A DNA stretch of 18,798 bases from Promethearchaeota archaeon (GCA_011364975.1 RDOE01000061.1:1-18798); one strand, 5' to 3'; positions 75 to 18,798 are shown, counted from the first letter of the stretch. The notes: a model not told the origin generated them from the sequence alone. A program made the numbers and translations.

Positions 75-1286
75 TTACTTTTTCTGATAATTTTCCCACT
101 TTTTCTCAAGATTTGGATCTTGTAAAGTTTGCATGATATATTTACCAAATTCTTCCCCAGTTGCCCCAGTGTCTCGTCCTGTAACTTTTAACTTCTTTTC
201 ATAAATTGCACAGATATCTAATGCCATTTCCAGTTTTCTTGCCTTTCCTACAAATCCAATATGGTTTAGAAGCATAGCAGACGCTTTTATTATGCTTGTA
301 GGATCCGCATATTTTGTTCTTCCTGTTTCTACCATTCTTGGTGCTGTACCATGAATCGCTTCAAACATTGCATATCGCTTTCCAATGTTTGCACTACCCG
401 CCGTACCGACAGAACCTTGAATTTGAGCGGCTTCATCAGTAATTATATCTCCATATAAATTAGGTGCAACAAATACTCTGAATTCTTTTTGACGTTCAGG
501 ATCAATCAATTTTGCTGCCATGATATCAATATACCAATCATCAAATTTGATTTCTGGATATTCTTCTTTAGCAAGTTTTTTCGCCATATTTAGGTACATT
601 CCATCAGTTGTTTTAACAACATTCGCTTTAGTAACAAGAGAAACTCGATTTGCTCCAGTCTTTTTAGCGTAATCAAAAGCTAATCGTAATATTCGGTCGG
701 TGCCTTGTTTAGTGTGAACACAAAAATCAAAAGCTAGATCTTCAGTTACACTTATCCCTTTAGATCCCAAAACATAAGCACCTTCAGTATTTTCTCGAAA
801 AAATATCCAATCTATACCTAATTCGGGAACTTTGACAGGACGGACATTAGCGAATAAATCTAATTCACGTCGCATGGAAACATTTGCGCTCTCTAAATTT
901 GGCCATTTTCCCGAAGCTAAATCCGCTGATGAGGGTGTATGCGTAGGACCTTTTAAAATCACATGACATTTTTTCAATTCTATTAAAACATCATCAGGAA
1001 TAGCTTTCATTAATTTTGCTCTATTTTCAATTGTTAAGCCTTCAATATCTTTGAATTGTATCTTACCGCTTTCGACTTCTTCCTTCAAAAGGAACTTTAA
1101 AATACTTTCAGCATGTTTAGTAATTTCTGGACCAATATAATCTCCACCAGCAACTCCAATAATTATTGGTTTCAATTTGGAATAATCAATCCAATCAGCA
1201 CCTTTTTTAAGTTCCTCTATTCTTTTCAATTGAGCTTTAACTAATCCTTCAAAGTGGTCTTTTGCTTTTTGCACTACATCTTCCAT
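75..1286 (-). CDS. icd: Isocitrate/isopropylmalate dehydrogenase family protein, probably isocitrate dehydrogenase
   Basis: Motifs GDYIGPEI, LKGPTHTP, SANVSMRRELDLFANVRP, RENTEGAY, TKANVVK, NLYGDIITDEAA and FEAIHGTAP. The ORF track starts at TTG 1301, but ATG 1286 follows a GAGGA RBS (ttGAGGAagaactatATG) and is preferred. Position next to aclAB supports isocitrate as substrate. Confidence 0.85.
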   Translation of the reverse strand: MEDVVQKAKDHFEGLVKAQLKRIEELKKGADWIDYSKLKPIIIGVAGGDYIGPEITKHAESILKFLLKEEVESGKIQFKDIEGLTIENRAKLMKAIPDDVLIELKKCHVILKGPTHTPSSADLASGKWPNLESANVSMRRELDLFANVRPVKVPELGIDWIFFRENTEGAYVLGSKGISVTEDLAFDFCVHTKQGTDRILRLAFDYAKKTGANRVSLVTKANVVKTTDGMYLNMAKKLAKEEYPEIKFDDWYIDIMAAKLIDPERQKEFRVFVAPNLYGDIITDEAAQIQGSVGTAGSANIGKRYAMFEAIHGTAPRMVETGRTKYADPTSIIKASAMLLNHIGFVGKARKLEMALDICAIYEKKLKVTGRDTGATGEEFGKYIMQTLQDPNLEKKWENYQKK

Positions 1287-1426
1287 ATAGTTCTTCCTCA
1301 ATACATCTTTTATTTTTATTTTTGATTTGCTTTTGTTTTTAATTTTTAGTCTTTCTTAAAATTTATTATTATAAATTTATAAAAAAAATTAATTAAAATT
1401 TCTAAATAACCAATTAGAATATTTTT

Positions 1427-3262
1427 TTAGCTTCCAAATAGAATTTCATCCCAAGGTTGTCGATATAGGCCAGCACGTTGACGCTTTTGATCAAATACAT
1501 GCCCCATCATTCCAATAGTTCTTCCTAGTACAAATAAACCATTTAAAGCTTCGCTTTGAATAACATCCTCAATTTCTTCTTGACTAAAATCTAAATTTTC
1601 TAATAAGTCTAAAAATGTAATACCAATACATCCATCTACATTTAGGATTAGATTATTACGCTTAGATGTTGTGAGTTTTTCTACTTCCAAAGCATAATCC
1701 AAATGGGGGTGTTTTTGAAAATTTTTGAATACGAAATCTTTGAGTAAGGTTACTCGAACATCGGGATTCTGAACGGACTTTATTCTATGTCCGATTCCGG
1801 GAATATTTATTTGTACAACATTTTTCATATAACCTATAAATTCCAATGGAGGCATCTGCTTTTGCAAGGCTTCTCTGAAATATTTTGCTGCATCAGAAAT
1901 TGCTCCACCAAATCGAGGTCCAATAGTTAATATTCCTGAAGCAAGAGAAGACATTAAATCTTTACCTGCACGAGCAGTAATAATTGCATTATGCGCTCCA
2001 CTCACAGCAGGTCCATGGTCCGCAGTAAGCTTTATTACCATTTCTATGAACTGTTGAGCAAATTCTGGTAATTCTTTTTTAAACCATAAGAGACCAATTA
2101 CATATCCAATGGATTTATTCTTACGGATAATTTCGTCAAGACCTATACCAGCAAAGGTTGGGACATCTCCACGATCATCTGAAATTGTGACTACTACATC
2201 ACTTTGACGTCTAACTATTCCAAGACGAATCGCTTCATTAAAATCAAGTGGAATTTTAGGTGGTTCCTCTTCTTTTATTGGTATTACTTTACCTTCTGTT
2301 TTTAATTTTTCGAAGGTTGCTTTAATTATTTTATCAAAATCTTCGTATGAATCTGGGACTATTGCTCCAGCTTCTTTAAGGGCCTTATTCTTAGCTTCAG
2401 CGGTTTCTCTATCACTTCCAGCCATCGCGCCTGCATGTCCAAATTGTAAGCCTTTGGGTAAAATTCTTGCTGCAGTTCCCGTTACCCATATAACAAGAGG
2501 CTTTTTAATCTTTCCATTAATTAACGCATCAACTATTTCGTATTCTTCACTACCTCCGATTTCACCTAGACAAACTAGCATTTTGATTTTCGGATTTGCC
2601 TCATACCTTAAGAGATGATCTATTAAACGTGAACCAGGGTATCGGTCTCCTCCAATCGCTATACTTTCATAGACACCATCAGTGTTTTGAGCAATCATGA
2701 AGTTCATTTCATTACTTAAACCACCAGACTTAGAAACAAAACCAACAGATCCAGGGCGATATAATTTTGATAATATAATATTCTCAAGTGTTCCTGCGGT
2801 ATTCCCAATCTTGAATGCTCCTGCTCTTATTCCTCCAACAGTTGCGGGTCCAATAATGACTTTTCGGCGTTCTTGCGCAATTTTATTTAAAAACTGACTC
2901 TGTCGTTCTGGTACTCCTTCAGCAATAATGACTACAACCCTGATTGTCTCTGATTCAAGTGCTTCTTTACTTGTGTCATATGCGGAACGAAATGAGGCAA
3001 AATTTATTAACACATCTGCCTTAGGATGCTTTTTTATAGCCATATTTAACGTTTTATAGATTGGGATAATAATCTCCTTACTCCCCCAAAATACTTTATG
3101 ATAAGCAACCGCAGCCTCTTGCGTAGGTTGAATCATAGCAGCAACAGAGGGGGTTTTCCGACGACATACATAATCAAAATCTATCATTCTTTGAACGGGA
3201 GCTGCTTGTAATCCATAAATTATAGCCTGAGTATTCTCATTAAAAAGTTCATAATCTTCCAT
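1427..3262 (-). CDS. aclA: ATP citrate lyase alpha subunit (CoA-binding + CoA-ligase + citryl-CoA lyase domains)
   Basis: 611 aa with ACL motifs FASFRSA, IIAEGVPE, GPATVGGI, VSKSGGLSNE, IGGDRYPG, phospho-His QFGHAGA, DHGPAVSGAHN, IGPRFGGA, GIGHRIKS..NPD.RV, NLILNVDG and LNGLFVLGR. Confidence 0.95.
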   Translation of the reverse strand: MEDYELFNENTQAIIYGLQAAPVQRMIDFDYVCRRKTPSVAAMIQPTQEAAVAYHKVFWGSKEIIIPIYKTLNMAIKKHPKADVLINFASFRSAYDTSKEALESETIRVVVIIAEGVPERQSQFLNKIAQERRKVIIGPATVGGIRAGAFKIGNTAGTLENIILSKLYRPGSVGFVSKSGGLSNEMNFMIAQNTDGVYESIAIGGDRYPGSRLIDHLLRYEANPKIKMLVCLGEIGGSEEYEIVDALINGKIKKPLVIWVTGTAARILPKGLQFGHAGAMAGSDRETAEAKNKALKEAGAIVPDSYEDFDKIIKATFEKLKTEGKVIPIKEEEPPKIPLDFNEAIRLGIVRRQSDVVVTISDDRGDVPTFAGIGLDEIIRKNKSIGYVIGLLWFKKELPEFAQQFIEMVIKLTADHGPAVSGAHNAIITARAGKDLMSSLASGILTIGPRFGGAISDAAKYFREALQKQMPPLEFIGYMKNVVQINIPGIGHRIKSVQNPDVRVTLLKDFVFKNFQKHPHLDYALEVEKLTTSKRNNLILNVDGCIGITFLDLLENLDFSQEEIEDVIQSEALNGLFVLGRTIGMMGHVFDQKRQRAGLYRQPWDEILFGS

Positions 3263-3265
3263 TTT

Positions 3266-4555
3266 TTATTTACCTCCCATTTTTTCTACCATTCGTGCAA
3301 CTGGACGTGTCATACTACTATATCGATCGTAGATCTCAATTGGGATGCCTGTTTCTTCTCCAACCTTCCTCATTAGTTCAAGTCCTTGCTTTTCATTAGG
3401 TCCTCCTCGTCGAACTAAGATTTTTACATTAGCTTTTTTTAACTTTTCGACTGATTTTTTAATAGCATTTACGATTCCACCGAAAGTTGCTTTTACGTCT
3501 GTAAAATTGGCTATTCCGCCCCCAATTATAAGGTACTTTTCCCTTCCTTGAGGATCTGGATGTTCTGTTATTAAATCTATTAAAGTTTGAGCATATATTT
3601 CAGTATGTTCTTGACTGGGATTTCCCGAATACTCACCATAATTAGCTAATTCCTTTTCAAGCCCCAAATCCGCGATAGTATCAGTATAAATAACACTTGC
3701 TCCACCACCTGCCACCATAGTCCATATTTTCCCTTCTCGGTTTAAAATGGTCAACTTCAATGAAGCTCCAGTCTTTTCATCAAGTTCCATAATTTTCTTT
3801 TCTTCAGTACTCATTGATTGACCAAACGCCGCGGGAAATTCAATGGGCTTTTCAGGATTCCCCCAAGTATCCGTATGGAGAAATGCCGCAGTATCATCTA
3901 ATCTCGCTTTAACATCTAAAGGAACAACTTTTTTATCCTTTGTTATAGCAAAAGGATTTATCTCTAAAAATGCAAAATCTTGATTTATAAACACTTGATA
4001 AAGCCCTTTAATAAAGGGGATTATTGTATCCTTTAAGTCTCCGAGATTTGGGATTTTTCCTTCTAAATCAAACGAATTTATATCCGTTCCAACAGGTATG
4101 GGAATATGAATTACTTTATCCCAATTCTCCTCAACAAATATCCCCCCTTCAAAACTAAAATGAATTACATCATTGTTTCTTTCCGTTGTAATTGAGATAT
4201 AATATTCTTTTTCATGAGGGATAAATGGTTCTATTAATAATCGTTTCAATTTTCCTCGTACATTTCCAATTTCAAAGACTTTATCTAAGTTATTATGACA
4301 AAAATTTTTCATTTCATTGTAGTTGGCATCAAGAAGAATAAGCTTAGCTTTTCCTCTTTTCCCAAACAATTGATCCGGTTTAGCGACTAATTTTTCTGTT
4401 TGAAGCCAAGGATTTTTAGGAATCGCTTTTTCAAGGTCAGTATCATAGTCAACGATTAGCAATTTATTATGATAATTAAAATTGGGATAATATTTTGGTA
4501 GTTCTTTTGCTAGGATTTTCTTTGCATCATATTCATATATATTTTTTTGAGCCAA
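3266..4555 (-). CDS. aclB: ATP citrate lyase beta subunit (ATP-grasp + citrate-binding domain)
   Basis: 429 aa, TTG start. Motifs IYEYDAK, KPDQLFGKRGK, LEINP, ASLKLTILN, IWTMVAGGGASVIY, ELANYGEYSG, GGGIANFTDV (citrate-binding) and VRRGGPN. Confidence 0.95.
   Translation of the reverse strand: MAQKNIYEYDAKKILAKELPKYYPNFNYHNKLLIVDYDTDLEKAIPKNPWLQTEKLVAKPDQLFGKRGKAKLILLDANYNEMKNFCHNNLDKVFEIGNVRGKLKRLLIEPFIPHEKEYYISITTERNNDVIHFSFEGGIFVEENWDKVIHIPIPVGTDINSFDLEGKIPNLGDLKDTIIPFIKGLYQVFINQDFAFLEINPFAITKDKKVVPLDVKARLDDTAAFLHTDTWGNPEKPIEFPAAFGQSMSTEEKKIMELDEKTGASLKLTILNREGKIWTMVAGGGASVIYTDTIADLGLEKELANYGEYSGNPSQEHTEIYAQTLIDLITEHPDPQGREKYLIIGGGIANFTDVKATFGGIVNAIKKSVEKLKKANVKILVRRGGPNEKQGLELMRKVGEETGIPIEIYDRYSSMTRPVARMVEKMGGK
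3272..3277 (-). promoter_or_regulatory. Shine-Dalgarno site for aclA inside the 3' end of aclB
   Basis: GGAGGT lies 9 nt upstream of the aclA ATG (atgGGAGGTaaataaaaaATG), consistent with translational coupling. Confidence 0.65.
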
Positions 4556-4812
4556 TTCTTTTTCGAACTCTAGATTATTATTTTCATTATATATTATAGA
4601 TAATTAATATGAGTAGAATTCATTTTAATAAAAATTTTTCCCACATTTCTTATATGGGAAGGATTTCCCTTTAATATAATGTTTTTATTATTATCTTTCA
4701 AGCTCTTAAAGATTTAAGGTATTAATTAAATTAGCTTTAATTAAATCGAAGTAAATAGGAAAGAACTTAAAGTTTTTACCTTTCTGATTTATACTTTTAA
4801 GATTGTGTTTTT

Positions 4813-5934
4813 TTATTCTATTAACTTTATCTGAGTAAGACCTTTTTCTTTTATTACTTTGGCACCTATATCACTGATTCTATTTGCTAATTCACTGATT
4901 TTCCATTTTTCATATCCTTTTACATATGTAGAAAAAGTATCTTGCAAAGGATTAGTCCATTTCTTAGGGATTTTATCAGCTCCGAGTTGAGCTCCTAAGA
5001 TGGCACCAACATTTCCGCAATTGCAATCCGTATCAAGACCCATCATTGCAGAAATGCATATTGATTCACCGAGTTGATCTTTATCATTATGTGCTCCATA
5101 CAATAAAGATAAAATGATAATGCCAATATTAGGAAGTACATGAACTTCTGGAATATGAATACCCGGTTTTATTTCATTCAAAAAGCTTAATCGTCTTTCA
5201 TCTGTAATAGGGGTTTCTTTCACTAATCTTTCTCTAATTGTATTCCAATATTTAATTAATTTTTTTCTTCCTTTGATATAATCATCAGGAAATTCTTCGT
5301 AAATATCCAAAGCAGAAAGTATCATTTGAGTATATAAGCTTTCATCCTCTTTTGGTAAGAATCTAAGAGCTTTTTTAATGTTTTTTTCTATATTATTTTC
5401 AAAAAATGCTTGTGAAACCATAACGGCAATATAAACTTCACCTTCAATTCCAATACCTGCATGAGATATACATCCATCAATTTCTGCATAGGTCTTTGCA
5501 ATAAAAGGACATCCTGGAGCAATTTGACCCCAAATATCTGCTCTCATTTGAGCACCAATTGCATCATAATATTCATTATTATAGGTTCCAGATTCTGGAG
5601 GCCATATATTTGATTTTAAGTTGTCTATAGCCACTTTTTCTGCAGTATAATTTAATGTATATAAAAGATTGATCCATTCTTCGGCAATATCCCTTGAGGT
5701 AAGATTAATCCCCTTCTTTTCTAAAGCAATTAATGCACAAATTTCATACATCTCATCATCATTGACAAAATTCAGATCAATAGGTTCTAAATAATATGTA
5801 ATATCACCATATTTCTTTTTTCTATCAAAATACGGCATAAACTCAACAGGTGCCCCTATAAAATCTCCCGCAATACGTCCTAACCAAGAGCCTAAAATCT
5901 TATTATAGTAATCTTTAGATGTTATTTCATACAT
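4813..5934 (-). CDS. ADP-ribosylglycohydrolase (ARH/DraG) family protein
   Basis: 373 aa with motifs GDFIGAPVE, VNDDEMY (metal-binding DD), GAQMRAD, ISH and GLDTDCNCGNVGAILGA. Confidence 0.88.
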   Translation of the reverse strand: MYEITSKDYYNKILGSWLGRIAGDFIGAPVEFMPYFDRKKKYGDITYYLEPIDLNFVNDDEMYEICALIALEKKGINLTSRDIAEEWINLLYTLNYTAEKVAIDNLKSNIWPPESGTYNNEYYDAIGAQMRADIWGQIAPGCPFIAKTYAEIDGCISHAGIGIEGEVYIAVMVSQAFFENNIEKNIKKALRFLPKEDESLYTQMILSALDIYEEFPDDYIKGRKKLIKYWNTIRERLVKETPITDERRLSFLNEIKPGIHIPEVHVLPNIGIIILSLLYGAHNDKDQLGESICISAMMGLDTDCNCGNVGAILGAQLGADKIPKKWTNPLQDTFSTYVKGYEKWKISELANRISDIGAKVIKEKGLTQIKLIE

Positions 5935-6003
5935 ATACTATTCTAAGGATTCATATAAATGATAAAAGAAAAATATTAGGAAAAAGTAAAGTCAAAGATT
6001 ATA

Positions 6004-6864
6004 CTATAATAGTTTTTTAATCAACTTAGGCACATCCCAAGGAGTCCTTGCTATAAATCCACCAGCATTTTTTAATGCCTTAATTTTAGCTTGTGCGGTA
6101 TCAAAATCTCCTGAGATTATTGCGCCCGCATGACCCATTCGTTTTCCTTCGGGTGCACATTTTCCAGCAATAAATGCTACAATGGGCTTATCGACATTAC
6201 GCTTTACATATTCAGCTGTTTTTTGTTCTTCATCGCTCCCTATCTCTCCTATTAAAACAATAAGTTTTGTAGTTGAATCTTTTGAATAATATTCAACAGC
6301 TTCTTTCATTGTTGTACCCCGCACTGGATCTCCTCCAATACCAACGTATGCAGAAACCCCAATTCCCGCATTACCGATTATATTTGTTATTTCGTACGAT
6401 AAAGTACCACTTTTAGAAATTACGGCTACCTCTCCAAAATGACACATATCATCCGGCATTATTCCTAGTTTAATTTTATCAGGTATGAGTATTCCAGGAC
6501 AATTAGGACCAACCAGATGAAGGTTTTTTTCACGAGCAATTTCAATCAATTTGATCATATCAAATACTGGAACATTTTCAGTTATAATGCAAGTTATTTT
6601 AATATCAGAAAACAAACTTTCTCTAACAGCTCCAAAAGCAAATTTTGCAGGTACAAATACAATGCTGGTATCACATCCAGTTTCTTTTTTTGCCTTTTTC
6701 ATGTTATTAAAAACAGGCACACCATAAACTTCTTGTCCTCCTTTACCTGGGGTGACTCCTGCGACTACCTTTGTTCCATATTCTAGCATTAATTGAGTAT
6801 GGAATCTCCCTTGGGTTCCAGTAATCCCTTGTACGACTACTTTAGAATCATCATCAATATACAT
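6004..6864 (-). CDS. sucD: Succinate--CoA ligase alpha subunit
   Basis: Motifs VQGITG, GVTPGKGG, GPNCPG, SKSGTLSYE, GIGGDP, GEIG and phospho-His MGHAGA. Confidence 0.93.
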   Translation of the reverse strand: MYIDDDSKVVVQGITGTQGRFHTQLMLEYGTKVVAGVTPGKGGQEVYGVPVFNNMKKAKKETGCDTSIVFVPAKFAFGAVRESLFSDIKITCIITENVPVFDMIKLIEIAREKNLHLVGPNCPGILIPDKIKLGIMPDDMCHFGEVAVISKSGTLSYEITNIIGNAGIGVSAYVGIGGDPVRGTTMKEAVEYYSKDSTTKLIVLIGEIGSDEEQKTAEYVKRNVDKPIVAFIAGKCAPEGKRMGHAGAIISGDFDTAQAKIKALKNAGGFIARTPWDVPKLIKKLL

Positions 6865-7989
6865 CTATTTTTTCATCACTTCTTTTAACTTTTTAACAGC
6901 TTCCATGACATCTTTAAATACAGTGATATTGTTTTTTTTAAGTATTTTAATACCCTCAATTTCATTTGTTCCTGTTAACCTGATAACCATTGGAGGGGTA
7001 CTTTTAAAATTGTGTAAAGCTTCAATTATTGCTTCAGCCACGGCATCACAACGAGTTATTCCTCCATAAATATTTACAAATACTGCTTTAGGATTCATTT
7101 TAAAAAGGAGTTCTAATGCTTTATAAATTCTTTCTTTACTTGCGCCACCGCCTACATCCAAGAAATTAGCAGGTTTTAGCTCTAGGCTTGATAAAACGTC
7201 TAATAGTGCCATAGTAAGTCCAGCACCATTCGCAAGAATGCCAATATCTCCCTTTAATTTAATAAATGAGAAACCTGCTTCTTTAGCAAATTTTTCAAAT
7301 TCACTTAATTTTTTTATCAGTAATTCTTCTACTATAGGTTGTCGAAAAGCTGAATCCTCATCTAGGATCATTTTACCATCCACAGCAATCAAGCCGGATG
7401 GCGTTATTACTAAGGGATTGATTTCCACTAATTGAGCTTCTAAATCAACAACTATTTTCCATAACTTCAGAAAAATGTCTTTAGCTGAAATTAAATTTTC
7501 AATCGAAAATTCAAGATTATTAGCTATTTTTTCAGCTAAATTCGCTGTTAATCCTGTTCTATAGGAAAATTCCTCCTTAATTATCGCATCAGGGTTACTT
7601 TTTGAGACTTCCTCAATATCGATTCCTCCTTCTCTACTTGCAATCAAAAAAAACCTCCTTCCTGAAGCGTCTAATGCAATAGAGCAATAATATTCCTGTT
7701 GAATGGTTACTAAAGCTTCAATTAAAATCGCCTCTACATTAAATCCCGCTACAACCCTAGTGAAAAATTCTTTACACAAAGATGTAGCTTCTTCTTGATT
7801 CTTAGCTAATTTAATTAAACCTGCCTTCTTTCTACTACCGATGGCAATTTGAGACTTAATAATAGCAGGATATGGAAAATTCATTGTTTTTTCTTCAATT
7901 TCTCTTGGATTATTGATTATAATAAAATTTGGGATTGGAATTCCAAACTTTTTAAAAATTAACTTACTTTCATATTCAAGAAGTCGAAT
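6865..7989 (-). CDS. sucC: Succinate--CoA ligase beta subunit (probable ATT start, 374 aa)
   Basis: Motifs GGIDIEEV, EINPL, NGAGLTMALLD, PANFLDVGGGA, NIYGGITRCD and RLTGTN. The frame stays open 35 codons upstream of ATG 7884 and encodes the conserved SucC N-terminus (I/M)RLLEYESKLIFKKFGIPIP, beginning at ATT 7989. Confidence 0.9.
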   Translation of the reverse strand: MRLLEYESKLIFKKFGIPIPNFIIINNPREIEEKTMNFPYPAIIKSQIAIGSRKKAGLIKLAKNQEEATSLCKEFFTRVVAGFNVEAILIEALVTIQQEYYCSIALDASGRRFFLIASREGGIDIEEVSKSNPDAIIKEEFSYRTGLTANLAEKIANNLEFSIENLISAKDIFLKLWKIVVDLEAQLVEINPLVITPSGLIAVDGKMILDEDSAFRQPIVEELLIKKLSEFEKFAKEAGFSFIKLKGDIGILANGAGLTMALLDVLSSLELKPANFLDVGGGASKERIYKALELLFKMNPKAVFVNIYGGITRCDAVAEAIIEALHNFKSTPPMVIRLTGTNEIEGIKILKKNNITVFKDVMEAVKKLKEVMKK

Positions 7990-8230: not shown

Positions 8231-9655
8231 TTGAAATCGATTGAAAATGGGTTAAAGATAACAAAATCTGAAGAATTGAGTACGAGGAAAATGATATTAT
8301 TTTCCACGGGCTATTTCTTAAACACTTTCTTAATGTTAGCTTTTAATAATTATGTCTGGACGTTTTATGAAGGAGAATTCGGATTAATCGAAGTAACTTC
8401 TTTTTGGCCAATCTATATGGCTCTTGCAAATACGATTTTTACAATATGGAGTATAATAAGTAACCCTCTTTTGGGGTATTTAACGGATAAACCTATGAAA
8501 TGGACCAAAAAACGTGGTTTTCATACTCCATGGATAATTATTGGTGGTATCCCTTCAATTATTTTCTTTTTCTTACTCTTCACACCACCCAATGTCTCAG
8601 GGCCTAATAGTGTATTTATAGTCTTCATATACTATTTATTAATTGTAGCTATTTATGACACTTCTTATTCTATTCTTCAAACCCACTCCTTTGGTGCTTT
8701 TGCCGCTCATTTTAGGAGTGATAATGACCGCAGAAAAGGAGGAATATTAACTCAAGCTTTTACATTTTTAGCAAATTTTTTAGCAATTACTATATTTTCA
8801 CAAATCATTGATCCGGGTGTTCCAAGCACATTCACGAGTGCTGCTTTAGTAAGTGTAATCATATTAGCAATATCCCTTACTATTTTTTTACCGGGTTCAA
8901 AAGAATCTGAAATGATTAAGGATCGCTTTATTATGGGTTACAAAAATGCAAAAAAAGTTTCGTTTTTAAAAACAATGAAAATGGCATTAAAACAAAAAAA
9001 TTTTATGCTAGTGATCATATCATATATTTCTTTTATGATAGCCATGGGATTAGTAAATATGAACTCTGTTAATTTTGTTGATGATATCTTACATGAAGAG
9101 CAATATATACGATCAATTGGATCTATTCTGATGTTACTCGCTTCCCTTATAACTATGCCATTATGGGCTAAACTTGCAAAAAGAATTGGACATTCCAATA
9201 CTTATACTCTTGGTTTAATTTCTTTTGGAGTTAGTTTATTATTTTATTTCTTTATTATTAATACTTTTCAATTCTATATTTTAAGTATATTAGGAGGTAT
9301 CTCTGGTGCGTTATTCCTAATAATGTTATCACCCGTTCTAGCAGATTGTTATGATGAGATTACTGTAAAAACTAAAAAACATCATGAAACTACATTAGTA
9401 GGTATAAGAAATGTATTTGTAAGAATTTCATTAACGGTTCAAAGTTTTATCGTAGCAATAATTCATGCGATTAGTTTTTACAATCCGAATGAGACTATTC
9501 ATAGCTATGAAGCGTTAATGGGACTTCGTATGATCCAAGGAATAATTCCTTTCGCTTTTTGTATTCTTGGAGCTTTGATTTTTTACAAATGGTTTGATTT
9601 AAAAGGAGAAAAAAAAATGAAGATGTTGCAAGATTTACAGGAGATTGGTTTATAG
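8231..9655 (+). CDS. MFS transporter, glycoside-pentoside-hexuronide (MelB-like) family
   Basis: 474 aa, TTG start, about 12 hydrophobic segments. NPLLGYLTD..KWTKKRG...PWI motif, second-repeat LAKRIG, and LADCYDE. Confidence 0.85.
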   Translation: MKSIENGLKITKSEELSTRKMILFSTGYFLNTFLMLAFNNYVWTFYEGEFGLIEVTSFWPIYMALANTIFTIWSIISNPLLGYLTDKPMKWTKKRGFHTPWIIIGGIPSIIFFFLLFTPPNVSGPNSVFIVFIYYLLIVAIYDTSYSILQTHSFGAFAAHFRSDNDRRKGGILTQAFTFLANFLAITIFSQIIDPGVPSTFTSAALVSVIILAISLTIFLPGSKESEMIKDRFIMGYKNAKKVSFLKTMKMALKQKNFMLVIISYISFMIAMGLVNMNSVNFVDDILHEEQYIRSIGSILMLLASLITMPLWAKLAKRIGHSNTYTLGLISFGVSLLFYFFIINTFQFYILSILGGISGALFLIMLSPVLADCYDEITVKTKKHHETTLVGIRNVFVRISLTVQSFIVAIIHAISFYNPNETIHSYEALMGLRMIQGIIPFAFCILGALIFYKWFDLKGEKKMKMLQDLQEIGL

Positions 9656-9674: not shown

Positions 9675-10718
9675 TTAATAAGTCCCTATTTTTTCTATTA
9701 TGGTTTTCGCGATACCTAAATTGCGACTTGCCATAGTTATAGGTTCCCATGGCCATTCACAACCCGCTGCATACATATAATTACCTTTTGGCTTTCCAAT
9801 CTCAATTGTTGTAGATATTTCATTTATAATTTCTGTCAGGGGATGGGTGGGGTCCCCCAATATCGTAGTATTAGTATTTCCACGGATACAATTTGTACTT
9901 CCAATTTTTTGTTTGGCTATTTTTAAGTCAACCTGATAATCTAAATCTAATATTGCTGCATTAGTTTTTGATATTAATTTTAGCATATCTCTTCCCTCCT
10001 TATCAATCACAGAATTATCTCCGCAAACATGATATAAAACGGGTACTTTTTTTTGAATGGCTTCAAATAGATTTTTTGTCGCTTCTAGGCAAGATTTTTC
10101 ATACCTCATCGGACCAATTTGCGAAATTGCCGAGTCTCCTGCCCCTATAATATTAGCACCCTCCTCAATTTGCATTTTTGCGAATTCAATTTGAACGGGA
10201 ATAACACGATTAATTAAGTTCCTTATTTTTTTATCCCAATCAGAATTTTTACATAACATTAAAACATTTACTAAACCAAATAGACAATTAATTTCAGCAA
10301 ATGGTGCTTCGATCCAACCTATAATACACTGTTTACCACCTACTTTTTGATTTAATTTCTTTACAGAATTGACTCGATTCATAGTTCTTTGGTTAGATTC
10401 TAAATCTGGTTCTTCTATTGAATCAAATTCATCTATCTTTAAATGTGATTTAGCGGTAGGTGTATGACCCTTCCAATCAATTTCTATACCCCAAGCGTTT
10501 GCTTCACGGTATGCGTCTGTGGAGACATTTACATGGTCAATACCAAAAAAGTTCGAACACTTTATCTGAGCTTCAGCTAAAGTTTCCGGATATTCACAAT
10601 ATTCTCTATTATAGTCTAAATTCGCTAAAGTCGCTGCCAGATGCATAATAAAAGGATTAAAGGGGATCTTTTCAGGGATTCCTTTTATCGCTGATAGAGT
10701 TAATTCTAGAGAATTCAT
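9675..10718 (-). CDS. Uroporphyrinogen decarboxylase family protein, MtaA/CmuA-like methylcobamide methyltransferase
   Basis: 347 aa with EANAWG, GWIEAPF, QIEEGA.IIGAGDS, putative Zn ligands HVCG and C-terminal AAGCE, and IRGN. Confidence 0.78.
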   Translation of the reverse strand: MNSLELTLSAIKGIPEKIPFNPFIMHLAATLANLDYNREYCEYPETLAEAQIKCSNFFGIDHVNVSTDAYREANAWGIEIDWKGHTPTAKSHLKIDEFDSIEEPDLESNQRTMNRVNSVKKLNQKVGGKQCIIGWIEAPFAEINCLFGLVNVLMLCKNSDWDKKIRNLINRVIPVQIEFAKMQIEEGANIIGAGDSAISQIGPMRYEKSCLEATKNLFEAIQKKVPVLYHVCGDNSVIDKEGRDMLKLISKTNAAILDLDYQVDLKIAKQKIGSTNCIRGNTNTTILGDPTHPLTEIINEISTTIEIGKPKGNYMYAAGCEWPWEPITMASRNLGIAKTIIEKIGTY

Positions 10719-12524: not shown

Positions 12525-13910
12525 GTGAAATATCGCTTAGAAAAAGATATATTAGGCGAATTAGAGGTCCCAAGTGATGTTTACTGGGGAATAAATACTC
12601 AAAGAGCTATTCAAAATTTTAAAATAAGTGGTTGTACCTTTCCAGAGATTTTTATTTTTTCTTTAGCTCAATTGAAAAAAGCTTGCCTATTTTCTAATAC
12701 CGAACTGAAATTAATTGATAATAAAGTCAGTGAAGCAATTCTTAAAGCAATTAATGAAATATTATTAGAAAAAAAGTATTTAAACCAATTTCCGATTGAT
12801 ATCTTTCAAACAGGGAGTGGGACTCAAACTAATATGAATATAAATGAAGTGTTAGCAAATCGTGCAAATGAATTACTTGGCTTTCCATTAGGAAAAAAAG
12901 AGCCTGTCCATCCTAATGATCATATAAATAAAGGACAATCATCCAATGATGTTATTCCAACTACGATGCATATTTCTGCTCTGTATATGCTAACTAAAAA
13001 GTTGTTACCTTCAATGAGTAAATTAATTGAAGCGTTAATTAGCAAAATTAATGACTTTAACGATATTATTAAAGTAGGGAGAACTCACCTTCAGGATGCT
13101 GTACCTCTTCCGTTAGCAATGGAATTTGAAGTGTATAAAAAGCAAATAGAAACCAGTAAAAAAAGAATAGAAAACGCGTATGAAGAGCTTTATGAAGTCC
13201 CGATTGGAGGTACAGCAGTAGGGACAGGTCTAAATAGTCATGAAGATTTCTCTAAATTAACAATTAAATATCTTTCACAAATCACCAGTTTTCCTTTCCG
13301 CGTTAATTCCGTGAAAGCGGAAGGAATCTCTTCTCATAATACTATAAGCCGTGTTAGCAGTGATCTCAGATTATTAGCGTTGTCCCTCCTAAAAATGGCA
13401 AATGATATTAGATGGATGGGAAGCGGTCCTCGTGCCGGACTTGGTGAATTGATTTTACCTCAAAATGAAGCAGGCTCCTCAATAATGCCTGGGAAAATCA
13501 ACCCTACTCAATCTGAAGCATTAATTCAAGTTTGTCTCAAAGTAATAGGTAATGATTATACAATATCTTTGGGAGAAGCATATGGTAGTAATCTCGACTT
13601 AAATGTATGCAAACCTTTAATGATATTCAGTCTTTTAGAATCTATTGAATTATTATCAAATTCTATTACTTCATTTGTAGATCATTGCCTATTAGATTTA
13701 AAAGCTAATATACCACGAATAAATTCACAATTGGAAAACTTGCTAATGGTGGTGACTAATCTAACTCCTCTACTTGGATATGAAAAATGTTCTACTATTG
13801 CCATTAAGGCATATGATGAGAATAAAAGTATAAAGGATGTAATAAAAGAAATGAAAATACAATTAGATGAGGATTTAGATGAGCTCCTAGATCCAAAGAA
13901 AATGGTCTAA
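12525..13910 (+). CDS. fumC: Class II fumarate hydratase
   Basis: GTG start. Motifs YWGINTQRA, QTGSGT..NMN.NEV, HPNDHINKGQSSND, GRTHLQDA, SGPRAGLGE and signature GSSIMPGKINPTQSE. Confidence 0.92.
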   Translation: MKYRLEKDILGELEVPSDVYWGINTQRAIQNFKISGCTFPEIFIFSLAQLKKACLFSNTELKLIDNKVSEAILKAINEILLEKKYLNQFPIDIFQTGSGTQTNMNINEVLANRANELLGFPLGKKEPVHPNDHINKGQSSNDVIPTTMHISALYMLTKKLLPSMSKLIEALISKINDFNDIIKVGRTHLQDAVPLPLAMEFEVYKKQIETSKKRIENAYEELYEVPIGGTAVGTGLNSHEDFSKLTIKYLSQITSFPFRVNSVKAEGISSHNTISRVSSDLRLLALSLLKMANDIRWMGSGPRAGLGELILPQNEAGSSIMPGKINPTQSEALIQVCLKVIGNDYTISLGEAYGSNLDLNVCKPLMIFSLLESIELLSNSITSFVDHCLLDLKANIPRINSQLENLLMVVTNLTPLLGYEKCSTIAIKAYDENKSIKDVIKEMKIQLDEDLDELLDPKKMV

Positions 13911-13925
13911 ATGGGTGAAATGATC

Positions 13926-14981
13926 ATGACTATAGAAAATATGTCATTGGAGGAAATACGAGAAATTGCTAAAAGTAAATTAATGGGTATCTGTGGTGTC
14001 TATAAGGACTGCGATGGGAGCCCTATGAGGATTTGTCAAGGTCAAAGTTATGGGAAACCTCTAAAATTCGGAGGAATTGGAAGTGGTGCAAGCTTTAATA
14101 ATAACTTTCTAGCTTTGAAGAATTATCACCTTAAAATGAAAGTTATTGGAGAACACTTTGAACCTGATACCTCCTATGAATTTTTTGGTAATAAATTATC
14201 TATGCCGATCATGGGAGCAAGTGTAGCAGGAGTGAATAGTTTTGGTGGGGAAAGTGTAATCTCTGAAAAAGAATTTTGTCGGGCGGTAGTATTAGGTTGT
14301 AAAGAAGCGGGAACTGTTGGTTGGAGGGGAGATACATACACTTATTCACTTGAAAAAACATTTGGATTAGATGCTATTAGAGAAACGGGTGGATGGGGTG
14401 TTAAAATTGTTAAACCAAGAGATCAAGACATGATTATGAAATTGTATCACATGGCAGAAAAAATTGGATGTATAGCCGTTGGAACAGATGTGGATGGGTG
14501 TGAATCATTCGCTATGACTACTCATAATCAACCAGTATTTAGAAAAAGTGTTGATGATCTTAAAGAATTAGTTTCATCCACCAAATTACCTGTTATCATT
14601 AAAGGCATTATGAGTGTTGAGGATGCCCTGATTGCACAAGAAGCAGGAGCTGCAGCAATTGTCGTATCAAATCATGGAGGTAGAGTGTTAGATCATACTC
14701 CGGGAACTGCTAGTGTCTTACCTGTAATTGTACAAAAGGTTAAAAATAAACTTCACATTTTCGTTGATGGAGGCATAAGAACCGGTTATGATGTATTAAA
14801 AATGCTTGCTTTAGGAGCAGACGCTGTATTAATTGGTCGTGATATGGTAAGAGCTGCTGTGGGTGCAGGTATTTATGGTGTAAAAACTCATATGGAATAT
14901 TTAAAACAAACACTTTCTAAAGCAATGAAAATGACTAATTGTAAATCTTTAAATGATATTTCTCAAGATATCATAAGCTAA
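13926..14981 (+). CDS. FMN-dependent alpha-hydroxy acid oxidase/dehydrogenase family protein
   Basis: TDVD, IIKGI, catalytic SNHGGRVLD, DGGIRTG.DVLK.LALGA.AVLIGR. In-frame ATGs at 13911, 13920 and 13926; 13926 is chosen for its GGTGA RBS 7 nt upstream. Confidence 0.88.
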   Translation: MTIENMSLEEIREIAKSKLMGICGVYKDCDGSPMRICQGQSYGKPLKFGGIGSGASFNNNFLALKNYHLKMKVIGEHFEPDTSYEFFGNKLSMPIMGASVAGVNSFGGESVISEKEFCRAVVLGCKEAGTVGWRGDTYTYSLEKTFGLDAIRETGGWGVKIVKPRDQDMIMKLYHMAEKIGCIAVGTDVDGCESFAMTTHNQPVFRKSVDDLKELVSSTKLPVIIKGIMSVEDALIAQEAGAAAIVVSNHGGRVLDHTPGTASVLPVIVQKVKNKLHIFVDGGIRTGYDVLKMLALGADAVLIGRDMVRAAVGAGIYGVKTHMEYLKQTLSKAMKMTNCKSLNDISQDIIS

Positions 14982-17510: not shown

Positions 17511-18798
17511 ATGCTGGGTAATGGCTATTTTGGTGAATGGATTATCGATGAACATGGATTACCTGCTTACAATTATAAATGTAATCAATTAATAGATCCA
17601 AAAGCAAAAACTAAAACTACTTATGGTTTTTCAACTGATCATTTTCATCAAATAGGAAATGATAGAATAATGGGCACTGCTCATAATGGAGGATATGTTC
17701 AAATCTTAGATGGATCTAGAGGATTTAAATGGTTAACATACCAAGACAGTAATAATGGTAAGCTTGGTGGCGGAATAGGTCTATATTATTTTGAGAATGA
17801 AAAAACCTGCTTTTCGGACCTCTACACTTTTGAGAACTTAAATAAATTTACTAAATTTGAGAGAATCTTCGGAATTGGTTATTTCAAGAAGAAATATAAA
17901 TTTAATGATATAGATATTCAACATAGCATTTGTACTCCATTTTCAGATGATCCTATTGTCATATCCGAATTTTTAGTCTCATCCAATTATGATAATTCAA
18001 ACAATAATAAAATTAAAATCGTGGATTTATGGGATATTAATATTCACCCAATTTTAAAATCTTTAATTGTAACTTGGAAGAATCGCAAGAGATTCGGAAT
18101 ATCTAAACTATTCAACTTAGTAGGAAGAATAATAACATTAACTTTTAAACTTATTAGAAGGGATACAGAAAGTACTAGAAGAAGATTTGCTAGGAAATTC
18201 AAATATATAATTTCCTATAATCCGGAATTAAAAACTATTATTTTAACACCAAAGTATAAAAAGAAACCACCTGTTGCTAAGGATGAACCATCTAAATACG
18301 ACTATTATCCCAAATCCCTCTTTTTAACTATGTTCAACCAAATAGATGTCAAATTTTTTATTAATAAAAGAAATTTATTCAAAGGAAATGATATTTCTAT
18401 AAATTGGGATTCAAGAGTTGAGTTAAGGAAAATTAAAAAGCAAGGCTTATGCTTAGGTGCAGGAGTTAGCCTAAATCTAAATAATGATAGAAATAAAAGA
18501 ATAATCACGCTTTTTGGATATGAAGAGCTGGATAAAATAGAAGGATTAGTGAAAAAGTACAAGCAAATTGTCTCAAATCAATCAATATTAGAATGGAGTG
18601 CAAACCAGTGGCAAAAATCAATAATCAGCTTAGATATTAAAGATGAGCCTCAACTTTTTCGTGAAACTATATGGCATTCATATTATACACGCAGTGCTTT
18701 ATTTTATGATGAATATTATAAAAAGCATCGTCTATATCAAGGTTCAGTTTATCTATTTGGACATGGTATTGATGGATCGATTCGAGATTATATTCTTT
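17511..18798 (+). CDS. Large glycoside hydrolase/phosphorylase-like protein (GH94/cellobiose phosphorylase-like), 3'-truncated by the window
   Basis: Absent from the ORF track because there is no stop in the window. Manual translation is open for 429 codons from ATG 17511: MLGNGYFGEWIIDEHGLPAYNY...HQIGNDRIMGTAHNGGYVQ...ERIFGIGY...RETIWHSYY...YQGSVYLFGHGIDGSIRDYIL. The GN..NGG, G.GY and G..RD elements resemble GH94-like architecture. The ORF is secure; the family call is tentative. Confidence 0.65.
   Translation, partial: MLGNGYFGEWIIDEHGLPAYNYKCNQLIDPKAKTKTTYGFSTDHFHQIGNDRIMGTAHNGGYVQILDGSRGFKWLTYQDSNNGKLGGGIGLYYFENEKTCFSDLYTFENLNKFTKFERIFGIGYFKKKYKFNDIDIQHSICTPFSDDPIVISEFLVSSNYDNSNNNKIKIVDLWDINIHPILKSLIVTWKNRKRFGISKLFNLVGRIITLTFKLIRRDTESTRRRFARKFKYIISYNPELKTIILTPKYKKKPPVAKDEPSKYDYYPKSLFLTMFNQIDVKFFINKRNLFKGNDISINWDSRVELRKIKKQGLCLGAGVSLNLNNDRNKRIITLFGYEELDKIEGLVKKYKQIVSNQSILEWSANQWQKSIISLDIKDEPQLFRETIWHSYYTRSALFYDEYYKKHRLYQGSVYLFGHGIDGSIRDYIL

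Follow-up and report, generated by a model that had tools for sequence, protein, structure and literature searches.

Does the presence of ATP-citrate lyase (ACL) mean that an archaeon fixes carbon by the reductive tricarboxylic acid (rTCA) cycle, or can the enzyme belong to a pathway that does not close? The question is raised by a contig from a Promethearchaeota archaeon (GCA_011364975.1, RDOE01000061.1; the whole stretch of 18,798 nucleotides is here called the window), in which open reading frame (ORF) calls and Pfam and NCBIfam profile searches place six consecutive minus-strand ORFs, sucC-sucD-ARH-aclB-aclA-icd, between positions 75 and 7989. Besides ACL, the cluster specifies succinyl-CoA synthetase (SCS), isocitrate dehydrogenase (IDH) and a protein of the ADP-ribosylglycohydrolase family (ARH). 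ACL is taken as the marker of the rTCA cycle, and it is on this ground that metagenomic surveys count Lokiarchaeia among rTCA autotrophs. We hold, with a probability of roughly 0.85, that the ACL of the locus is genuine and belongs to an open pathway, not to a cycle; for the whole statement, in which this open line is also run mostly in the citrate-cleaving direction, our estimate is about 0.45. The case is of use as a correction: in this genome, ACL is no sign of an rTCA cycle.

ATP-citrate lyase and the dehydrogenase that follows it

The large subunit gene, aclA (1427-3262, minus strand), encodes a single protein of 611 aa comprising a CoA-binding domain, a His-phosphorylation domain and a citryl-CoA lyase module, with matches to CoA_binding (PF02629), Ligase_CoA (PF00549) and Citrate_synt (PF00285; residues 383-600). 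It aligns with the ACL of Methanothrix (6hxi_B) at 788 bits over residues 2-609 and with human ACLY at 736 bits. The alignment to 6hxi_B retains the GHAGA motif, which we take to contain the catalytic histidine, and the motifs presumed to mark the citryl-CoA lyase (CCL) module. The small subunit gene, aclB (3266-4555, minus strand, TTG start), encodes the ATP-grasp domain of ATP-citrate synthase (PF24948, 225.2 bits against a cut-off of 83, 9e-67) and the citrate-binding domain (Citrate_bind, PF16114, 253.2 bits against a cut-off of 26.8, 1.3e-75), and its product matches 6hxi_A at 431.5 bits over residues 1-423 of 429. Pfam and structure alignments thus show the domains of a two-subunit ACL in both proteins. 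The lyase module is fused to AclA, and the pair is therefore ACL proper, not a split citryl-CoA synthetase and lyase (CCS/CCL). The initial identification of the two genes as ACL stands: both predicted subunits are full-length and collinear with the solved archaeal and human enzymes, and together would form a genuine two-subunit ATP-citrate lyase.

Immediately 3' of aclA lies icd (75-1301, minus strand), predicted to encode a homodimer-type IDH of 408 aa (Iso_dh, 1.2e-66) with an N-terminal extension of about 47 aa that is also found in relatives. The protein scores under every NCBIfam equivalog cut-off among the 17 families listed (best, NF006673, 231.4 bits against 509). Its nearest entries in the PDB are IDHs (6m3s/6ltf, 177.7 bits; 6lky, 170.2 bits): these lead, at 170-178 bits, over HICDH (136-141 bits) and IPMDH (at most 121 bits), and the S-x-N motif, presumably the substrate motif, lines up with that of the solved IDHs.

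The position of the gene in other genomes bears on the same assignment. A scan with AclA over one genome per species returned 80 loci, of which the 70 with AclA of at least 70% identity were used for synteny counts (55 with at least 1.5 kb downstream of aclA, 51 with at least 5 kb upstream); the ten excluded loci, at 54-62% identity, belong to Methanothrix, Thermoplasmatota, Aenigmatarchaeota, an unclassified archaeon and one divergent record titled Promethearchaeota. A same-strand IDH gene lies 3' of aclA in 50 of 55 loci: it is of the Iso_dh type in 45 and monomeric in five, and in 34 of those 45 the window-type icd lies within 400 bp of aclA. The monomeric enzyme (PF03971, 748 aa, 1238-1266 bits) replaces the Iso_dh gene in L121 (10883-13129), L145 (10872-13118), L105, L124 and L144; the first two are records titled Ca. 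Lokiarchaeum ossiferum and Promethearchaeum syntrophicum MK-D1. These five loci are cases of non-orthologous displacement. Because two unrelated IDH families occupy it, the slot after aclA would appear to encode IDH function, and the icd of the window is accepted as a probable IDH on slot evidence, nearest structures and the S-x-N motif rather than on any curated model.

Nearly all 70 loci carry titles of Promethearchaeota, Promethearchaeia or other Asgard groups, and the AclA of the window is 79% identical to that of P. syntrophicum MK-D1 and 78% identical to that of Ca. L. ossiferum. The assignment does not depend on ACL alone, because many other window genes match Asgard records: the transporter, the URO-D-like gene, fumC, the FMN dehydrogenase, the methyltransferase and the last ORF all recur there at 55-92% identity. 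The contig matches Promethearchaeota records of metagenome-assembled genomes gene for gene, in agreement with the Asgard origin first proposed, and the organism is a Promethearchaeota archaeon of the Lokiarchaeia type, from sediment. One record with AclA 91% identical to that of the window and the same neighbouring genes is titled Nanopelagicaceae bacterium (L123), and looks like a mislabelled or contaminated bin.

Gene order was borne out as an observation: contigs from runs of three other studies span the junctions aclB-ARH-sucD-sucC (X2 record 10, 3714-7000; X4 record 27, 3531-7000; X3 record 19, 4447-7608), and a further contig spans icd-aclA-aclB (X3 record 17, 181-3529), which rules out an assembly artefact. 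The contig is also typical of its own bin in GC content (0.316, with a genome mean of 0.307) and in tetranucleotide profile (rank 99 of 166 contigs). Because relatives repeat the same arrangement, the clustering exceeds chance.

The preliminary description proposed that synteny be checked across Asgard genomes, and implied that the cluster was rare. The first check shows conservation, and aclBA followed by an IDH gene is an inherited Asgard module. The implied rarity did not survive: Citrate_bind, the ACL-specific domain, occurs in 35 of 41 genomes of the genus, 80 of 134 of the family and 122 of 400 of the phylum, so that the cluster is routine for the lineage, a condition that the preliminary description had itself named as refuting. 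It is moreover an already known, ordinary member of a published kind. Passages of a 2018 preprint report IDH, 2-oxoglutarate:ferredoxin oxidoreductase (OGOR) and ACL in Lokiarchaeia, and interpret them as an autotrophic rTCA cycle (bioRxiv 10.1101/385732); passages of later texts place ACL in "most Asgard phyla" (bioRxiv 10.1101/2022.10.25.513756) and in "various Asgardarchaeota" (PMC11976288, 2025), and in both of these, ACL trees already treat the eukaryote question. The gene cluster itself is not described in main-text passages of these three sources, and the word "citrate" is absent from the main text of Imachi et al. 2020 (PMC7015854).

Enzyme inventory and direction of the pathway

If ACL served a cycle, then the remaining enzymes should be encoded elsewhere in the genome (G000; 3.74 Mb in 200 contigs, 99.25% complete by markers); the comparison took in the three genomes nearest to it at the locus (G255, the nearest, with G270 and G267; 79-83% nucleotide identity; completeness 86% for G255 and listed as 100% for G267 and G270). 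L-aspartate oxidase, NadB (729 bits, cut-off 629), is the one strong FAD_binding_2 protein of G000: no FrdA, SdhA or TfrA was found there, tblastn with Asgard SdhA matches only NadB (34% identity), and the SdhB/FrdB domain (Fer2_3) has no match. In G255, G267 and G270 the search for a fumarate reductase flavoprotein likewise returned only a NadB-type match. The only Citrate_synt match in G000 is AclA itself, and the sole match in each of the other three genomes is weak (E ~1e-19 to 1e-20), the strength of the AclA module in G000. Because there is neither fumarate reductase/succinate dehydrogenase nor citrate synthase, no closed cycle, oxidative or reductive, is encoded.

Candidates for other enzymes listed at the outset as worth searching for are present. 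Three KorAB-type sets score 489.9 bits (NF006412, above its cut-off of 411), 505.9 bits (TIGR03710, above 482.75) and 407.9 bits (below 411), and there are two four-subunit POR/VOR-type sets and indolepyruvate oxidoreductases, the models leaving the substrates of the oxidoreductases unassigned. Two Ldh_2 paralogs are the only candidates for malate dehydrogenase (MDH). Of the search list, kor, por and mdh have candidates; frd/tfr, citrate synthase and, in the assembly, a 645-aa aconitase were missing. An HdrA2-like gene (1061.7 bits, cut-off 1100) lies immediately downstream of one KorA/KorB/gamma-type set (G000:C184, L056:1762-7198), a pairing that suggests 2-oxoacid oxidation linked to electron bifurcation of the heterodisulfide-reductase type.

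A complete autotrophic rTCA cycle, its missing steps carried out by unrecognised or unassembled enzymes, is on this inventory highly improbable. ACL, IDH, KorAB-type enzymes, POR, SCS, fumarase and MDH candidates are all in place, an SdhA/FrdA-type gene is carried by 12 of 41 genomes of the genus (as a rule on the contig that has ACL), the assembly breaks inside a gene at the window end, and the claim is in print for Lokiarchaeia in passages of bioRxiv 10.1101/385732. Against the cycle stand the missing fumarate reductase of all four genomes and the lack in G000 of any match to pyruvate carboxylase (PYC_OADA) or to PEP carboxylase (PEPcase, PEPcase_2), while the Wood-Ljungdahl enzyme CODH/ACS is already there (CdhC and CdhD). 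A GTP-dependent PEP carboxykinase is encoded, and might in principle work in reverse. Of the metabolic roles first offered for the cluster, the complete rTCA cycle is unsupported for want of a fumarate reductase, and the caution that autotrophy is not shown was correct; breakdown of 2-oxoglutarate and glutamate via IDH and ACL, and reverse use of ACL as a citrate synthase, both stay live.

Across the lineage the picture varies. A full-length citrate synthase accompanies ACL in 10 of 41 genomes of the genus, and across the order citrate synthase is often found beside a second aconitase on the same contig. Of the 151 genomes of the order searched, 22 have a full-length citrate synthase where no ACL match was found, and 41 lack both enzymes, the marker-based completeness of several of these 41 being 95-100%; all four combinations occur, and strict complementarity of ACL and citrate synthase was therefore rejected. 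In some genomes (G262, G263, G217, G223, G271, G164, G163) the surroundings of the ACL module have the look of a variable "TCA island", with citrate synthase and a second aconitase or an SdhA/FrdA-type gene; within the genus, the ACL contig often bears a fuller complement of TCA genes. Some Lokiarchaeia may thus close the cycle; the present genome does not.

For this genome we favor an open, reversible line in which acetyl-CoA plus oxaloacetate, citrate, isocitrate, 2-oxoglutarate, succinyl-CoA and succinate would be interconverted in that order. The line would join glutamate (through four strong glutamate dehydrogenase (GDH) family paralogs, ELFV_dehydrog) to acetyl-CoA (CODH/ACS, POR) and to oxaloacetate, PEP and pyruvate by way of GTP-dependent PEP carboxykinase (PEPCK; 578.8 bits against 504), one malic enzyme, the Ldh_2-type MDH candidates and fumarase. 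In a presumed peptide-fermenting anaerobe, flow would usually be toward citrate cleavage: IDH would reductively carboxylate 2-oxoglutarate derived from glutamate, and after isomerisation of the product ACL would cleave it, the resulting acetyl-CoA yielding ATP via ADP-forming acetyl-CoA synthetase and also feeding lipids, and the oxaloacetate passing through PEPCK to PEP and gluconeogenesis. The other share of 2-oxoglutarate would be oxidised to succinate by OGOR and SCS, with a yield of ATP.

The main rival is the same open pathway reversed, which would have ACL in the role of a citrate synthase that conserves ATP: oxaloacetate and acetyl-CoA, the latter supplied by the Wood-Ljungdahl pathway or by fermentation, would give citrate and one ATP, and aconitase and IDH would carry the citrate on to 2-oxoglutarate and glutamate, much as in the incomplete oxidative branch known from some methanogens. 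We consider this possible, if rather unlikely. In its favor, a genome so nearly complete has no Citrate_synt protein besides AclA, the reductive route to 2-oxoglutarate is blocked in the absence of fumarate reductase, CODH/ACS is present, the nearest relatives of the IDH are NAD-dependent enzymes, which work oxidatively, and the 22 genomes of the order that have citrate synthase instead of ACL make a partly complementary pattern; Desulfobacter postgatei is reportedly a precedent for such use. On the other side, no dedicated oxaloacetate-forming carboxylase was found, the four GDH-family paralogs suggest that glutamate is abundant and not limiting, and the 41 genomes with neither enzyme show that the step is dispensable in the lineage. 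Three short paralogs of the IPMS/homocitrate synthase family in G000, all under every equivalog cut-off, could include a Re-citrate synthase, and the ten genomes with both ACL and citrate synthase suggest that ACL is not merely a citrate synthase.

The citrate-cleaving direction is favored for a matching set of reasons: GDHs are abundant, no carboxylase feeds oxaloacetate and PEPCK can draw it off, ACL and a true citrate synthase coexist in a quarter of the genus, and a transporter gene is a conserved neighbor of the cluster. That transporter raises a further alternative, in which citrate or other tricarboxylates imported from sediment would be the substrate, ACL fermenting citrate, and IDH and SCS acting independently on related acids. 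The divergent transporter gene recurs in 24 of 70 loci, one relative has a gene of the citrate transporter family CitMHS between sucD and aclB (L142:6121-7560), and the scheme would work even if aconitase were truly absent. The transporter, however, is MFS_2/GPH-like with no sign of carboxylate transport, CitMHS appears at a single locus among the slot genes scanned, and the tight pairing of aclA with IDH, together with the adjacency of aconitase elsewhere, indicates a unit joining citrate and 2-oxoglutarate: we consider import improbable.

Several points weigh against an open line run mostly toward citrate cleavage. The direction of flux is not readable from sequence; the ACL reaction is near equilibrium, and D. 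postgatei is reported to run it toward citrate. De novo synthesis of glutamate from acetyl-CoA would need ACL as a synthase, unless one of the IPMS-family paralogs is a Re-citrate synthase. In the PDB comparison the icd product is closest to NAD-dependent IDHs, and reductive carboxylation is usually ascribed to NADP-dependent ones. The family of the conserved transporter carries mostly glycosides, not carboxylates. Locus counts across related genomes are not independent events. Finally, the 645-aa aconitase (NF005558) is missing from the G000 assembly, and is missing too from G255, where no aconitase fragment is found at the corresponding contig end.

The aconitase is otherwise common (32 of 41 genomes of the genus and 106 of 131 of the family), lies directly upstream of aclB in six of 70 loci and falls within the available flanks in 12 of 70. 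What G000 holds is a LeuCD/HacAB-type pair (contig C128) that scores as the IPM/homoaconitate dehydratase family and has unrelated neighbours; it is a possible stand-in. The end of the window points elsewhere. The 429 residues of its last ORF (17511-18797, plus strand) are the N-terminal part of a protein of about 900 aa that the contig end truncates; they correspond to residues 20-448 of a 913-aa frame in G270, and for the rest of the protein no close match exists in G000. The same gene order is found in G267, where the 645-aa aconitase (969 bits, cut-off 612) follows the gene for the ~900-aa protein; in G270, where the order differs slightly, aconitase lies within about 1.7 kb of it. The contig probably stops some 2 kb short of the aconitase gene, which most likely lies just past its end (about two chances in three). 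A real loss in the lineage is possible, and has been downgraded because the contig ends inside the very gene that aconitase follows in G267.

More generally, in Lokiarchaeia that have neither fumarate reductase nor citrate synthase, aconitase, ACL and IDH may constitute a dedicated shunt between glutamate/2-oxoglutarate and acetyl-CoA plus oxaloacetate, neither a carbon-fixation nor a Krebs cycle; we offer this tentatively, as somewhat short of an even chance. If true, a hydrogen-limited syntroph running the shunt reductively would ferment glutamate to acetate with the release of no more than one ferredoxin's worth of electrons per glutamate, and the reverse mode would win back one ATP for each citrate formed; in either case ACL would be saving energy in a way so far undemonstrated in archaea, and this would bear on what the archaeal host contributed to the cytosolic ACL of eukaryotes. 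The aclBA-IDH unit is carried by two cultured Asgard strains, and its direction of flux matters for the question of how acetyl-CoA and citrate were handled in the archaeal ancestor of eukaryotes. Since the marker can sit in an open pathway that has no fumarate reductase, calls of autotrophy in Asgard archaea need to be checked genome by genome.

The variable slot, the sucC start and neighboring genes

Between sucD and aclB lies ARH (4813-5934, minus strand; PF03747, 3.4e-39). The match (135.7 bits) covers profile positions 1-286 of 287, as expected of the ADP_ribosyl_GH fold; the score for the DraG equivalog is 23.2 bits against a cut-off of 337, and the sole PDB match is weak (1t5j, MJ1187, 37 bits). 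The preliminary description had listed ARH among the genes of the cluster. If ARH were a functional partner, then it might act on ACL or SCS as DraG acts on nitrogenase, by taking off a regulatory ADP-ribosyl group. It lies on the same strand, 69 bp past sucD; its junctions are seen in independent assemblies; and it recurs in the slot, upstream of aclB in four of the 51 loci and also in G267 and G270 (possibly the same genomes as two of those four loci). Four of 51 is, however, few, and elsewhere the slot is filled by unrelated genes: those for glycosyltransferases, a peroxiredoxin, methyltransferases, small SH3 proteins, a flavoprotein disulfide reductase, a TPR protein and a NosD-like protein. 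No ADP-ribosyltransferase appears among the Pfam and NCBIfam matches of the window, and ARH is conserved at only 60-66% identity in genomes whose AclA proteins share 78-91%. On the variability of the slot, regulation of ACL or SCS was rejected as the default reading and seems most improbable; given its scarcity and the unrelated genes in its place, ARH is read as a passenger. The same slot holds a B12-binding protein gene and a URO-D-like gene in one relative (L101:5243-7465).

The region 5' of aclB is a spacer of 257 bp (4556-4812), AT-rich (GC is 0.278 in the 4001-5000 bin) and likely to contain a separate promoter. At gathering thresholds, Rfam gave no family match in the window, spacer included, and a tRNA scan of the window gave none. 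Identity to the closest relatives (L086 and L122) is uneven along the cluster: 91-92% for icd and aclA, 78-79% for aclB, 72-74% for sucD, 63% for sucC and 60-66% for ARH. The pattern suggests recombination within 75-7989.

The SCS genes complete the cluster. The alpha subunit gene, sucD (6004-6864, minus strand; NF004230, 377.8 bits against 336), lies upstream of aclB on the same strand in 21 of 51 loci. The beta subunit gene, sucC (6865-7989, minus strand), is less straightforward. The cluster end at 7989 holds only if translation starts at an ATT codon (7987-7989) immediately after an in-frame TAG; the first ATG, at 7884, would drop the first 35 residues and bring the end inward. Read from 7989, SucC matches the NF001913 profile from position 2, at 369.9 bits marginally under the cut-off of 370. 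In 20 genes compared (that of G000 and those of 19 loci from L086 to L142), the codon at this position is ATA in eight, ATT in seven, ATC in one, GTA in one and ATG in three: it is non-ATG in 17 of 20, and in none of the 20 is there a canonical in-frame start 5' of it before a stop. Because they are conserved, the residues after the aligned codon are presumably translated, and sucC across Lokiarchaeia appears to initiate on a non-AUG codon, which may reflect translational control. A GGAGG-like motif is found some 8-10 nt 5' of the start in most of the 20 genes, and a TTG at codon 3 offers an alternative start in seven loci.

Beyond the cluster, and divergent from it, is the MFS_2 (GPH-like) transporter gene (8231-9655, plus strand; PF13347, 6.3e-41), homologs of which (at least 55% identity) account for the 24 opposite-strand neighbors counted above. 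A URO-D/MtaA-like methyltransferase gene (9675-10718) is a recurrent neighbor of the cluster; with the B12-binding neighbor noted in the slot, it hints at nearby genes for corrinoid-dependent methyl transfer.

The gene fumC (12525-13910, plus strand) begins 4.5 kb from the sucC start, at the distance first reported, and occurs in 16 of 70 loci. Its best-scoring model is the fumarase TIGR00979 (565.7 bits, cut-off 664.75), ahead of the aspartase PRK12273 (506.3 bits, cut-off 510), and the top 26 matches in the PDB are fumarases (393-444 bits; the best aspartase scores 376): the product is probably a class II fumarase, an aspartase being less likely. Directly after it, with no spacer, follows a gene of the FMN-dependent L-2-hydroxyacid dehydrogenase/oxidase family (13911-14981, plus strand; PF01070, 2.1e-65), whose nearest structure is L-lactate oxidase 7f22 (180 bits; the N-terminal half is divergent) and which also adjoins fumC in L066, L132 and L138. 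Since the genome has no MDH of the Ldh_1 type, this gene is a candidate for the oxidation of malate or another 2-hydroxyacid.

Comparison with known systems

The ACL of D. postgatei, reportedly used as an ATP-yielding citrate synthase, is one functional parallel: it too belongs to an anaerobe that has no conventional citrate synthase and in which ACL could conserve the energy of a thioester. The difference is that D. postgatei is said to have a complete oxidative cycle and a terminal electron acceptor, whereas no closed cycle is encoded here. In structure the closest counterparts are the ACL of Methanothrix (Methanosaeta; 6hxi, 6znw) and human ACLY, which share the domain order of the Asgard proteins and are collinear with both subunits from end to end; the Chlorobium-type bacterial enzyme (6hxj) is far more distant, at 439.6 and 181.1 bits for AclA and AclB, respectively. 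The organisms differ.

Passages of the published texts on Lokiarchaeia describe the same enzymes (ACL, IDH and OGOR) in the same lineage, and infer from them a group-wide autotrophic rTCA cycle; without fumarate reductase and citrate synthase, this genome and its three nearest relatives would have an open pathway instead. Another comparison is with the loci of P. syntrophicum MK-D1 and Ca. L. ossiferum (L145 and L121), which share with the window aclB and aclA (62% and 78-79% identity) and an IDH gene directly downstream. These two loci place an aconitase of 644-675 aa directly upstream, use the monomeric 748-aa IDH (PF03971), and have neither sucCD nor ARH adjacent; the window, by contrast, joins the same lyase to sucCD and ARH upstream and to a dimer-type IDH downstream.

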